Shown piece after piece: positions 1,053-2,621 of a stretch of 64,000 bases of DNA. The notes beneath the pieces were generated by a model. It searched no databases. It worked only from the letters and a program-made list of their open reading frames with translations, and was not told the DNA's origin. Every line of letters starts with the position of its first letter. Position 1 is the first letter of the stretch. Position numbers and translations under genes: made by a program. Source of the DNA: Methanobacteriota archaeon (lineage in GTDB: Archaea > Thermoplasmatota > Thermoplasmata > SG8-5 > JAGLSY01). The stretch covers positions 1 to 64,000 of the forward strand of contig JAEHCQ010000003.1 of the NCBI GenBank assembly GCA_020696385.1, written 5' to 3'.

Positions 1053-1343
1053 TTAACGGTCCTGGGGTGTCTCAACCTCTTCCACCAGCTTCTTTCCTGA
1101 AGATACACTGTCAATGGAATGTACGACTGCTCCGCAATCCCTTATGACAGAATCAACATTTTCGAAGTTGATATTTGATCCATCGATAGTTATCTTTATG
1201 CTCTCGGTCTCTTGATCCACCTCATCAAGGGCGCAGTTAACACCTGCAATACCCTCGAGCGCGCTCAGGCGACGAGATACTTCTATTATCGACGGACTAT
1301 GTGGTTTCAACACATCCAGTACCAAACGTTTTATGTCTGACAA
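1053..1343 (-). CDS. DUF211 family protein
   Basis: [12 protein letters not shown]...[10 protein letters not shown] motif typical of archaeal DUF211. Confidence 0.85.
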
Positions 1344-1385
1344 TACTATTCACTCCCGACACAATGGTCGATATTATTCAGATAG

Positions 1386-1548
1386 TGGAACTGGTATTTT
1401 AAGGTTTTGAAGTAATAGCCCCGAGTGAGCATGCTTGGGCGATTTTTCTTTTGGATTGGAAACCTTGTTCTTTTGGAGCCCAAGCCAGCGGAGCGAGAGG
1501 AAAAGAAAAGGCTTCCTGGAACTGGTATTTTAAGGTTTTGAAGTAATA
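1386..1548. mobile_element. 99-bp structured non-coding element (1418-1516) flanked by perfect 32-bp direct repeats
   Basis: TGGAACTGGTATTTTAAGGTTTTGAAGTAATA at 1386-1417 and 1517-1548; internal stems GCTTGGGC/GCCCAAGC and GGAAACCTTGTTCTTTT/AAAAGAAAAGGCTTCC; homologue at 26019-26117. Confidence 0.7.
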
Positions 1549-1634
1549 ACAGAGCGACCATAGGCAATCTTTTGATCACATTATACAAAATTAGGAATGT
1601 AAACTATATACCATCAAAGAGTAATGATGTCTTG

Positions 1635-2621
1635 ATGGAAGAAGATCACAAGCATGACAATTCAAATAACCATGACCATTCAGAGAGTCATGGTCATTCC
1701 CACAACCACAACCACGGAATTGGTGGCGATGGCATGATAGAGAAGGGGCTGAAGTTCGCAATAGTCCTGACATTTGTCTTTTTTGTTGTCGAGATAATCG
1801 GTGGATTCATGTCCAGTTCCCTTTCACTTCTGGGGGATGCTGGACATATGCTACGTGATGTTTTCGCGCTCATGCTTTCCCTGGGGGCGGTCAGCCTGGC
1901 CAGGAAGCTCCCGTCCAAGACGAAGACCTTTGGCTATCACAGAATAGAGGTCTTCGCGGCCTTTGTCAATGGTCTTTTTCTGATAATCATCAGCTTCTGG
2001 ATATTCATCGAGGCCTTTCAGAGATACTTCGATCCAGAGCCCATCGAAAGCGGCATAATGTTCATTGTCGCGGTCATCGGCCTCATCGTCAATATCGTGA
2101 TCGCTTTCAAACTTCATGGTAGCGAGGACTTGAATGTCAGAAGTGCTTTCATTCATGTTCTGACCGATCTAATTTCATCGGTAGGCGTGATAATTGCCTC
2201 GGTCTGGATATACTTCACTGGCCAGACCATCGTGGACCCCATTGTGGGATTCGCTATCGCGATCTTCATCCTGGTATCCTCGATAAAGATAATTCGAGAA
2301 TCCGTGCATATTCTGCTGGAATTCACACCACCAGGCATTGATTTTGATGATGTCGTTAAGGACATCCAATCGGTCGAAGGAGTGGAGGATGTGAACAATG
2401 TGCATTTGTGGTCGCTTTGTTCCCACATCAATGTAGTGGACGCGCATATCCAGACCAATGCCAGTGATCTGCATGAGGTGGAGCTTATCAGTAAGAACAT
2501 CAAGGCTACACTTCAAAAATACAATGTCAAGCACGCCACCCTGGAATTCGAATGCGAGGCATGCGATGAGTGCCAGAACGGCTGCGTCATCGATAGTAAA
2601 GTAAAGGTAATGGAACATTAA
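1635..2621 (+). CDS. czcD: Cation diffusion facilitator (CzcD-like Zn/Co/Cd exporter)
   Basis: His-rich N-terminus, SLLGDAGHMLRD and HVLTD metal sites, 6 TM helices, Cys-rich tail. Confidence 0.92.
   Translation: MEEDHKHDNSNNHDHSESHGHSHNHNHGIGGDGMIEKGLKFAIVLTFVFFVVEIIGGFMSSSLSLLGDAGHMLRDVFALMLSLGAVSLARKLPSKTKTFGYHRIEVFAAFVNGLFLIIISFWIFIEAFQRYFDPEPIESGIMFIVAVIGLIVNIVIAFKLHGSEDLNVRSAFIHVLTDLISSVGVIIASVWIYFTGQTIVDPIVGFAIAIFILVSSIKIIRESVHILLEFTPPGIDFDDVVKDIQSVEGVEDVNNVHLWSLCSHINVVDAHIQTNASDLHEVELISKNIKATLQKYNVKHATLEFECEACDECQNGCVIDSKVKVMEH

Follow-up and report, generated by a model that had tools for sequence, protein, structure and literature searches.

In the portion of PMC2266710 cited here, IS1549 and IS1634 are the only prokaryotic insertion elements reported with long target duplications of variable length (8-514 bp); the same text describes the IS1634 family as common in Euryarchaeota and gives its long duplications without a mechanistic model. 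Both are DDE elements of 1.5-2 kb with inverted ends. REP/BIME (REPIN) repeats, which are mobilised by RAYT transposases and flank their genes, are small, protein-free, structured and strand-asymmetric; they occur in tens per genome, mostly just 3' of genes, persist across a lineage, and are built on an imperfect palindrome of 20-40 nt. Surrogate-gene-end cassettes (organelle homing-endonuclease ORFs, CIMEs and att-flanked elements) carry genes, use one target each and duplicate the end of the gene they enter, leaving a displaced copy behind the insert that differs mostly at synonymous sites. Structured RNAs provide a further comparison: telomerase RNA and the SAM-II and preQ1-II riboswitches contain H-type pseudoknots with a major-groove triplex in loop 1, and PAN and MALAT1 contain ENE/A-tract triple helices.

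The element described here, referred to hereafter as E, resembles REP and REPIN sequences in small size, lack of protein, structure, strand asymmetry, copy number, location 3' of genes and persistence in a lineage, and many of the genomes that carry it have a single-copy gene for a Y1 HUH transposase. It differs from them in that its unit is a 96-nt pseudoknot with interleaved stems and in that it is flanked by long duplications. With the surrogate-gene-end cassettes it shares the duplicated gene end, the mostly synonymous differences between copies and the displaced copy behind the insert, yet E is 96 nt long, encodes nothing and is found at dozens of genes. Unlike IS1549 and IS1634, E has no inverted ends, and its host genome has no IS1634-type or DDE_Tnp_1 transposase.

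The window, that is, the whole 64,000-nt stretch of DNA that was analysed, contains a 32-nt direct repeat whose two copies are 100% identical (left copy X, 1386-1417; right copy X', 1517-1548). A repeat search gave a spacing of 131 with 99 bp between the copies. The preliminary description had reported a non-coding 99-bp segment between perfect 32-bp repeats that carry the TATA-like box of the DUF211 gene, and both points hold. The minus-strand word AAACCTTAAAATA is present in each 32-mer, at plus-strand positions 1395-1407 and 1526-1538. The DUF211 gene itself lies on the minus strand at 1053-1343 (PF02680, E 1.3e-35, 121.9 bits), and its promoter region is duplicated. DUF211 retains the proximal promoter copy, and the distal copy would transcribe through E in antisense. 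Downstream of E and co-oriented with it is a cation-efflux (CDF) gene (1632-2621, plus strand; PF01545, PF16916) whose start codon is uncertain. The flank-duplication score of the locus was 32, compared to a 99th percentile of 15.0 for 1000 random pseudo-sites.

Two genomes of the same genus (G002 and G001) contain a single 32-mer at this locus and no insert. The empty site anticipated by the preliminary description thus exists as far as the repeat is concerned, but in G002 it is not clean, as it holds about 30 nt that resemble the 5' part of E (the BLAST alignment extends 30 nt into E). This stretch, which is similar to the 5' third of E, is present in the window at 1549-1577 on the plus strand (ACAGAGCGACCA..GGCAAT.TTTT) and may be an older truncated copy of E or target homology. 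Comparable 5' remnants were found at further E loci.

E occupies positions 1418-1516 of the plus strand and scored 99.4 bits against the covariance model (R1) of a dispersed structured family whose members begin with CCGAGCGAGC and end with AAAAGGCTTCC. All of its parts are read on the plus strand. A conserved 5' motif (1421-1433; consensus CCGAGCGAGCAGG, here CCGAGTGAGCATG), in which alignment columns 7-16 are nearly invariant, is followed by the 5' arm of stem A (1433-1440), which pairs with the 3' arm at 1478-1485. Between these arms are pyrimidine run 1 (TTTTCTTTT, 1444-1452), which makes up loop 1 of the pseudoknot, and the 5' arm of stem B (GGAAACCTTGTTCTTTT, 1458-1474), which pairs with 1501-1516 and leaves G1467 bulged. 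Loop 3 (1486-1500; family consensus CCAGCRCAGCGAGG) is conserved, with invariant or nearly invariant alignment columns 70-82. The purine run and tail (AAAAGAAAAGGCTTCC, 1501-1516) form the 3' arm of stem B, and the last base is the fixed junction with the right duplicate. No inverted pair joins the two ends of 1418-1516, and E has no terminal inverted repeats.

Covariation was assessed with 40 distinct members of the family. The two stems together scored 0.255 compared to 0.145 in shuffled alignments, a value that none of 500 shuffles equalled, and every slid register of the stems fell below the true one. Alignment cells were paired in 79.1% of cases (72.1% in shuffles), and 18 of 24 pairs had changed on both sides (7 of 9 in helix 1 and 11 of 15 in helix 2). 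E is an H-type pseudoknot whose two interleaved stems are backed by covariation, as first proposed from the topology of the window copy. In the tracts of stem B the antiparallel match exceeded the parallel match in 23 of the 40 sequences, and the reverse was seen in none. When run 1 was matched to the purine run, the parallel match was longer in 8 of 40 (six distinct tract types), the two were equal in 26 of 40, where the tracts are mirror-symmetric, and the antiparallel match was longer in 6 of 40, all from one lineage. This polarity suggests that run 1 lies parallel to the purine strand as a Hoogsteen third strand and forms a U.A-U/C+.G-C triplex on stem B. Interleaved stems and a U-rich loop 1 whose polarity is parallel to the purine strand of stem 2 are features of the triplex pseudoknots mentioned above, and a purine tract near the 3' end is a feature of the 3'-end-protecting triple helices; unlike these RNAs, E is multi-copy and mobile and has neither sequence similarity to them nor a match in Rfam.

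The preliminary description had favoured folding of the minus strand on the basis of a G-U pair in stem B. Our analysis does not support this, and the wobble is the other way round. In the ungapped register T1465.G1510 pairs as G.U on the plus strand, and the A.C mismatch falls on the minus strand; the stem A alignment contains 36 G.A/A.G cells across the family. Because of this wobble, the tandem G.A pairs, the parallel pyrimidine run and the co-orientation of E with upstream genes, the evidence favours the plus strand of the window as the strand that folds. Nested minimum free energy folding gave unremarkable z-scores on the two strands (+0.48 and -0.95); since nested folding is blind to pseudoknots, these values were not used as evidence.

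In the host genome, a 50-contig draft that is 94.5% complete, 55 nhmmer matches merged into about 41 dispersed copies of a unit of about 96 nt. Of 151 genomes of the class, 33 carry E according to the covariance model: every sampled member of eight families and none of 21 others. A pattern scan returned 51 stretches, 50 of them from Thermoplasmata-type MAGs, and viral contigs gave 0 matches to the family pattern. E matches no Rfam family (two chance-level matches, E 2.2 and 3.1, both lie beyond the element), and no description of it was found in the literature searched. Host-genome copies are at most 0.94 identical to their nearest neighbours (median 0.86; 0.84 for the window copy). By this measure the copies within the genome are old and no recently active intragenomic source is visible, yet several of the duplications are perfect. 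The occurrence of E in every genome of eight families would fit a host-maintained element no less than a selfish one.

The position of E relative to genes is biased. Twenty of 37 copies sit at most 130 nt after a co-oriented ORF of at least 100 aa, compared to 137 of 800 intergenic-like random sites, and the genes upstream are housekeeping or tRNA genes. As E is mostly just 3' of a gene, it is the end of the gene that is duplicated. Where tRNA-Ser and other tRNA genes are the targets, the repeat starts in the T-loop, and contig C50 carries tandem tRNA genes. Insertion polymorphism was compared at four loci: the window, PEPCK, UPF0179 and a guaA-type GATase. The PEPCK locus is filled in G003 and empty in G002 and G001; a 43-nt leader is left out of the duplication, and behind the displaced copy the spacer of the empty-site genome is missing. 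UPF0179 is empty in G002 and G003 and has a 5' remnant in G001. The guaA-type locus, which shows three generations of the C-terminal end, is filled in G002 and empty in G001.

Flanking duplications are the rule for E. In the host genome 28 of the 41 copies exceeded the 99th percentile of the scores at 1000 random sites, and 14 of the 41 exceeded even the highest control. The direct duplications abut the 3' end of E and range from 17 to about 310 bp depending on the locus, which exceeds the usual range of DDE elements and, together with the missing terminal inverted repeats, bears out the view of the preliminary description that this is not a typical DDE insertion. In other genomes 17 of 42 copies are duplicated, further families included; one subfamily, from a different genus, lacks duplications (scores of 12 or less for 11 copies). 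The right copy begins about 0-13 nt past the 3' end of E in most duplicated copies (exceptions about 34-110 nt). At older loci the left copy is up to about 56 nt away from E, partly owing to modules nested in E.

The duplication noted in the preliminary description is confirmed, but the repeats cannot be read simply as target-site duplications. Between the two copies at coding loci, differences fall on codon positions 1, 2 and 3 in 26, 16 and 86 cases (86 synonymous and 42 non-synonymous); in the 11 loci whose ORF reaches 200 aa or more, the corresponding counts are 10, 3 and 60. Because the copies differ mainly at synonymous sites, they are not target-site duplications decaying in place; they differ like two functional alleles. 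The copies on both sides of E usually extend through the stop codon. A remnant of the 5' part of E follows the right-hand copy at 6 of 29 loci, and at 5 of 29 the sequence before the left copy resembles the 3' end of E (both above the 99th percentile of controls), although microhomology between the 3' end of E and the site before the left copy was not significant overall (Mann-Whitney p = 0.18). Tandem arrays of two to three units occur at C47:27147-27593, C2:12211-13707 and C44:62073-62395.

Three other readings were considered and rejected. For translation from E into the right copy, 18 loci gave frames of 11/5/2 and no common start codon; the frame of the right copy is often shut by a stop 4-5 codons upstream. 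The differences between copies, judged by eye, are not adenine-specific as in the template and variable repeats of DGRs. Core-like words of an attC-like site were seen in a few stem variants only.

Enzymes that might mobilise E were sought in the host and related genomes. A reverse transcriptase partner, one of the candidates of the preliminary description, was not found: PF00078 gave no match in the host genome or in three other genomes of the genus, which as incomplete genomes cannot prove absence. By BLAST presence sets, 3 of 23 genomes with E have a reverse transcriptase, against 10 of 38 that lack E. E is like SINE and non-LTR elements in being non-autonomous and structured and in having variable target duplications, a fixed 3' end and an A-rich tract nearby. 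It is unlike them in that there is no reverse transcriptase in the host or genus, and in that truncated copies keep the 5' part and lose the 3' part, the opposite of 5' truncation. Searches with DDE_Tnp_1 (PF01609) and IS1634 (NF033559), the two DDE families covered, gave 0 matches in the host genome; with these absent, no terminal inverted repeats and no short duplication of fixed length, E does not qualify as a MITE. The HUH partner also suggested earlier fared no better. The only Y1 protein of the host, encoded on contig C50, is a TnpA of IS200 type (NF033573, 119.5 bits) and not a RAYT (28.2 bits against a cut-off of 80). One E lies 270 nt downstream of this tnpA, but E was present within 1.5 kb at 0 of 29 other Y1 loci. 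A linkage of E to tnpA was rejected, since the two are adjacent in the host genome only and the flanks of tnpA are not syntenic beyond the genus. By BLAST presence sets tnpA occurs in 16 of 23 genomes with E and 13 of 38 without; this co-occurrence tracks phylogeny and is only a weak lead.

E is best read as a new, non-autonomous, structure-dependent insertion element. In its specific form this reading describes a lineage-wide, protein-free and strand-asymmetric insertion element of about 96 nt in sediment Thermoplasmata, whose copy-in duplicates the DNA upstream, and we would give that form an even chance of being correct. The plus strand of E, in a single-stranded state that we infer to be RNA or ssDNA, would fold as the H-type pseudoknot, with a sequence-variable stem A of 8-9 bp and a stem B formed by a pyrimidine run and a purine run; the pyrimidine run of loop 1 would probably fit into the stem B major groove and give a U.A-U/C+.G-C triplex. 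Most insertions would take place just downstream of genes and tRNA genes. The copy-in event would have a fixed end at the 3' terminus of E and would recopy between 17 and about 310 bp of the DNA that precedes the entry point, either because widely staggered breaks are filled in or because a nascent strand returns upstream. As a result the gene end, or in the window the 32-bp promoter stretch, would stand on both flanks of E. Homologous recombination with alleles of other lineages, gain and loss of array units, nested hairpin insertions and 3' truncation might then reshape the locus.

An alternative that we consider possible, though with the chances clearly against it, is that the moving unit is the gene end together with E, exchanged between alleles, with a fixed end at the 3' terminus of E and a variable stretch upstream. 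A fragment or circle would re-enter the same locus of another chromosome or lineage by homologous recombination (Campbell-type or one-sided). The incoming end would serve the gene, the resident end would be displaced behind E, and E may be useful to the host as a 3'-UTR or trailer RNA, for example as a 3'-end-protecting triplex pseudoknot or a terminator. Such exchange would account for the allele-like differences at the 11 long-ORF loci, for copies that extend past the stop codon, for the arrays and the three generations at the guaA-type locus, for the presence of E in all sampled genomes of eight families and for its co-orientation bias with upstream genes, and a crossover in the 5' part of E is expected to leave the remnants seen after the right copy. 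It leaves unexplained, however, how E first arrived at a new locus and, unless donor and recipient were of the same lineage, why a non-coding 32-bp duplication is perfect in the window. There is also no known agent that cuts or ends a molecule exactly at the 3' end of E, and the displaced PEPCK copy lacks the empty-site spacer after it.

Local tandem duplication is less probable still. Folded E might stall replication, after which the upstream DNA and E would be doubled, by re-annealing of the nascent strand upstream or by unequal recombination between sister chromosomes, and one E would decay from its 3' side. The arrays, the 5' remnants behind some right-hand copies and the five loci with a resemblance to the 3' end of E before the left copy would all follow from such events. 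On the other side, the overall test for microhomology was not significant and the allele-like divergence of the copies is not expected from duplication in place. In addition, G002 has the 5'-like remnant of the window but no full E, and thus the full E arrived after the remnant existed.

We think it very unlikely that E is a guide-RNA-like scaffold akin to the omega RNA of TnpB, in which X' would be the guide and E would target or home to alleles with a matching gene end. The portion of PMC10097598 cited here gives the omega RNA of ISDra2 a scaffold of 116 nt that contains a pseudoknot and a triple helix and precedes a 16-nt guide derived from the flank. The parallel is one of layout: E is a scaffold of about 96 nt with a pseudoknot and a probable triplex, directly followed by a copy of nearby sequence, and synonymous recoding would protect the copy within the gene. 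However, none of the 29 candidates scored in the host genome matched the TnpB zinc ribbon (PF07282), the stem layout is different, and neither sequence nor Rfam connects E to known guide scaffolds. Moreover, the length of X' ranges between 17 and about 310 nt and is much greater than that of a guide, and several X/X' pairs, being identical, would be self-targets. The genes upstream are housekeeping genes, whereas an omega RNA is encoded at the 3' terminus of tnpB or at the right-hand end of an IS200/IS605 element.

There is an equally slight chance that a tyrosine or serine recombinase made E as a miniature att-flanked integrative element, with the flanking repeats as attL and attR. Direct repeats that lie at gene or tRNA 3' ends and regenerate the end of the gene look like integrase footprints, as do the tRNA-Ser and other tRNA targets whose repeat starts from the T-loop. 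Integrase elements have one target and a shared att core, whereas E has dozens of unrelated targets, each with its own repeat of 17 to about 310 bp, and an insert of about 96 nt with no att core in common with its flanks; none of the 13 upstream genes scanned had an integrase beside it. An assembly artefact, named in the preliminary description as a refutation, or a repeat that arose by chance is hardly credible: although the genome is a draft and the contigs from four DNA runs cover parts of the window structure with none spanning all of it, an independent metagenome run yielded one contig that matches 1258-1435 at 99% identity or more and bridges the left junction, the same architecture recurs at 28 host loci and in many independent assemblies, and orthologous sites are filled in other species.

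Taken as an insertion element, E adds a new structured family to those known: a pseudoknot supported by covariation, probably with a triple helix, which is not in Rfam and is found in eight families of uncultured sediment Thermoplasmata. It also has duplications that are both long and variable although the usual enzymes are missing from its host genome; duplications of this kind are otherwise reported, in the cited portion of PMC2266710, for IS1549 and IS1634 only. The duplication lets DNA enter the tails of genes harmlessly, as genes and tRNA genes stay intact and a spare, allele-like end is left behind the insert. The same route can create promoter duplications, as in the window, tandem tRNA genes, as on contig C50, and possibly T-loop introns. 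A bolder version, for which we see an outside chance similar to that of allele exchange, is that E represents a new class of prokaryotic mobile element, an active single-stranded pseudoknot-triplex that uses no known transposase or reverse transcriptase, carries a variable piece of the preceding gene, enters that gene in other chromosomes or lineages and replaces its end; the displaced copy directly behind the 3' end of E may then be a homing or guide sequence. If this is true, the same event at tRNA genes, with entry in the T-loop and a spare 3' half, would directly generate non-canonical tRNA introns as well as split-gene layouts in archaea.

The 99-bp segment at window positions 1418-1516 is non-coding and lies between identical 32-mers (1386-1417 and 1517-1548, 131 bp apart), confirming the perfect direct repeats reported in the preliminary description. 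On its minus strand the repeat contains AAACCTTAAAATA, located upstream of the DUF211 gene (1053-1343, minus strand; PF02680), and a plus-strand cation-efflux gene, recognised by domain search, lies downstream of the right 32-mer. An 80-aa ORF antisense across the element and both repeats (1346-1588, minus strand) is most likely spurious. The left junction was bridged by a contig of a separate public run (1258-1435, at least 99%); no contig from the public runs spanned the whole structure. An empty site with one 32-mer, which that description had suggested looking for, is present in two genomes of the same genus, G001 and G002, where the element is absent. In G002 the single 32-mer is followed by ~30 nt resembling the 5' third of the element, and the same stretch lies behind the right repeat in the window (1549-1577).

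The insert was also expected to have further genomic copies, with flanking duplications of their own. A search with BLAST and a profile from the first copies in the genome carrying the window (G000, with the window at C33:1-64000; 2.28 Mb, 50 contigs, estimated 94.5% complete) gave 55 nhmmer matches, which merged to about 41 copies. Twenty-eight are compact (92-96 nt each); the other 13 owe their greater length to one or two nested hairpin modules. In the flank-duplication test, the 120 nt to the left of a site were aligned with the 120 nt to its right; 1000 random pseudo-sites of the genome served as control (99th percentile 15.0, maximum 40). The window locus scored 32, and 28/41 copies exceeded the control 99th percentile, 14/41 the control maximum. 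Longer flanks revealed duplications of up to 225-256 bp, and of about 310 bp on contig C50. In most duplicated copies the right repeat starts about 0-13 nt past the last base of the element (about 34-110 nt in a few), while the left repeat ends 0-56 nt ahead of the 5' motif; a hairpin module nested between that motif and stem A, one of the two helices, forms part of this gap. When 29 loci were compared for a 5' remnant of the element behind the right copy, 6 exceeded the control 99th percentile, four of these being full next array units. Duplications of the same geometry occur in other genera and families (94 bp in G021, 92 bp in G020, 80 bp in G003, 78 bp in G048), as do tRNA T-arm repeats of 29-37 bp in G014 and G018, and a species-wide scan found duplication in 17 of 42 copies. 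Flanking duplication is thus a trait of the family. In a subfamily of another genus (L072-L086; G007, G010, G012, G018) a GC-rich hairpin, CTGGCGCG-CCCA-CGCGCCAG or the variant CCAAAGTCC..GGAC..TTGG, stands in front of the element, which ends in AAAAATACTC; 11 copies of this subfamily scored 12 or less in the flank test, showing no duplication.

Two kinds of nested module were seen. The double-hairpin module, one or two per long copy, consists of an AGATGCG..CGCATCT hairpin followed by an ATCAAGC..GCTTGAT hairpin (C33:161080-161221, C33:252806-252994, C46:40825-41038 and C2:12400-12598). The second is a hairpin, CTGAATCTCAG-CAAAG-CTGAG, between the 5' motif and stem A, found in G000 at C33:199748-199946, C48:100952-101130 and C47:27440-27593 and at the UPF0179 locus of G001 (L177).

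Orthologous sites differ across the genus. The PEPCK site is empty in G002 and G001 and filled in G003, with the same 43-nt leader; the UPF0179 site is empty in G002 and G003, and in G001 holds only the 5' motif and the module. At the guaA-type GATase locus G001 is empty and G002 carries a compact element with both repeat copies, the G000 copy having since been enlarged by hairpin modules that the G002 ortholog lacks. The insertion at tRNA-Ser is common to G000 and G002. Filled and empty sites show that copies are both gained and lost over the time in which species of one genus separate, and shared filled sites that some insertions are older than species splits. The G000 copies are old relative to each other: nearest-neighbour identity is 0.86 at the median and 0.94 at most (0.84 for the closest relative of the window copy). 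Perfect flanking repeats of 17-48 bp at five G000 loci are an oddity beside such old copies. No element fragments were found at the contig ends of G000, so the oddity is not readily explained by collapsed young copies.

Copies lie preferentially behind genes: 20/37 have a co-oriented ORF of at least 100 aa ending no more than 130 nt upstream, compared with 137/800 random intergenic-like sites and 415/3000 random sites of all kinds. Twelve of 13 upstream products scanned are ordinary genes and one has no Pfam match; they include purQ-type GATase, pyridine-nucleotide disulphide oxidoreductase, proteasome alpha, PEPCK, formate-THF ligase, UPP synthase and an M50 peptidase. Both duplicates normally extend through the stop codon, which leaves the gene intact and places a spare gene end behind the element. 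Among the exceptions is the window copy, whose site is a divergent promoter region.

The element was found with covariance model R1 in 33 of 151 class genomes sampled, with up to 27 scored matches per genome. Every sampled genome was positive in eight families (f1 4/4, f2 2/2, f3 2/2, f4 9/9, f6 5/5, f12 7/7, f15 2/2, f19 1/1) and none in 21 others (for example f7 0/15, f9 0/16, f13 0/15, f18 0/17, f20 0/12). An exact-pattern scan of one genome per species (about 185,000 species) returned 51 stretches, 50 of them in MAGs labelled Thermoplasmata, Thermoplasmatota, Methanomassiliicoccales or Methanobacteriota. The single match outside the archaeal group, in a Sulfuritalea MAG contig (L154), could reflect chance, binning contamination or transfer. 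Viral contigs gave no match to the pattern, Rfam holds no matching family, and no description of the element was found in full text outside subscription journals and supplements.

The two interleaved stems of the preliminary description were upheld by covariation in 40 distinct compact copies from 16 genomes. Paired cells of the two helices reached 79.1% (72.1% when shuffled) and the covariation score 0.255 (0.145 when shuffled); none of 500 shuffles attained the observed values, and six slid registers were all lower. Changes on both sides occur in 7/9 pairs of stem A and 11/15 of stem B. Stem A is freely variable in sequence (GGCTAACCC/GGGTTAGCC, GGGTCACCC/GGGTGACCC, GCTTGGGC/GCCCAAGC), with a frequent mid-stem tandem G.A/A.G variant (36 such cells); sequence is conserved in two stretches, the 5' motif CCGAGCGAGCAGG and loop 3 CCAGCRCAGCGAGG. 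The order S1a, loop 1, S2a, 3 nt, S1b, loop 3, S2b, in which S1 strands form stem A and S2 strands stem B, is that of an H-type pseudoknot. Loop 1 is a pyrimidine run. Where the stem B purine strand lacks mirror symmetry, this run tracks it in parallel, with T matched to A and C to G (TTTCTTTCTC/AAAGAAAGAG, TTTCTTTTT/AAAGAAAAA, TTTTTCTT/AAAAAGAA, TTTTCCTTT/AAAAGGAAA). Its parallel match exceeds the antiparallel one in 8 sequences (6 tract types), equals it in 26 and falls short of it in 6, all of one lineage; the Watson-Crick arm has its longer match in antiparallel polarity in 23 sequences and in parallel polarity in none. A putative loop-1 major-groove triplex predicts both polarities. Run polarity, the tandem G.A pairs, stem A counts (G.T 14 vs A.C 8) and co-orientation with upstream genes favour the plus strand as the folded one. 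Minus-strand folding had been argued from the stem B wobble, but T1465.G1510 is a plus-strand wobble.

In the coding parts, duplicates differ at codon positions 1/2/3 by 26/16/86, with 86 synonymous and 42 non-synonymous differences; restriction to the 11 loci whose upstream ORF reaches 200 aa gives 10/3/60. At the guaA-type 3' end (C33:199600-199950) the final 17 codons occur in three consecutive versions. The in-use copy and the one behind the element encode the same 17 residues and stop, with 6 synonymous differences, and the third is a more diverged remnant with no element before it. Decay in place should alter all codon positions, so simple decay of a target duplication does not account for the repeats. 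The pattern fits repeated overwriting of both copies by homologous recombination with functional alleles of insert-free lineages, or import of gene end and element as a unit from a diverged lineage. A reading-frame check lent no support to translation running across the element and on into the right copy.

We favour, at about even odds, a non-autonomous insertion element that would be recognised in its single-stranded pseudoknot form; its 3' end would be fixed while a variable stretch of upstream target is re-copied, and allelic recombination would follow. The main rival, in which homologous recombination (Campbell-type or one-sided) carries the gene end from allele to allele together with the element, accounts better for allele-like divergence, arrays and 5' remnants, but leaves the first arrivals and the fixed end unexplained. 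Duplication by local slippage, a guide-RNA-like role for the right copy, flanking repeats as an integrase footprint and an artefactual structure all rank lower.

The fold proposed for the element resembles triplex pseudoknots and ENE-type triple helices. REP/RAYT systems share its position and persistence, SINEs its fixed 3' end and variable duplications, and surrogate-gene-end cassettes its duplicated gene end. IS1549/IS1634 share long variable repeats, reported as 8-514 bp and lacking a mechanistic model (PMC2266710), and TnpB omega RNA resembles it in a scaffold with pseudoknot and triplex followed by flank sequence (PMC10097598). Each of these closest systems has one aspect in common with the element; apart from those shared aspects, the defining features tested were not found.

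Searches of G000 for RVT_1, the TnpB zinc-ribbon domain, DDE_Tnp_1 and the IS1634 transposase model gave no match. RT is present in 0/4 genomes of the genus and, among 61 relatives, in 3/23 with the element and 10/38 without it (BLAST presence sets), so the suggested co-occurring RT was not borne out. The only IS200-type tnpA of G000 (by NCBIfam), a Y1 HUH transposase gene at C50:2010-2357 (minus), has an element 270 nt downstream, but none of 29 other Y1 loci from relatives has one within 1.5 kb. Its neighbour genes are not conserved beyond the genus, and Y1 co-occurrence (16/23 genomes with the element, 13/38 without; BLAST presence sets) follows phylogeny. The tnpA gene is no more than a candidate partner.

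The order at C50:1231-2396 is tnpA, tRNA gene, element. About 310 nt, comprising the final ~57 nt of tnpA, the spacer and the complete tRNA, recur behind the element and leave two diverged full tRNA genes of 87-88 nt, called tRNA-Phe(GAA) by ARAGORN. tRNA-Ser(GGA) at C11:632534-632618 likewise lies upstream of a copy. Repeats at tRNA genes begin in the T-loop (GGTTCGA...), as seen in G014 (L079), G018 (L077), G000 (C11:632374-632618) and G002 (L089). Were the gene-proximal copy to decay, the element would turn into a T-loop intron.
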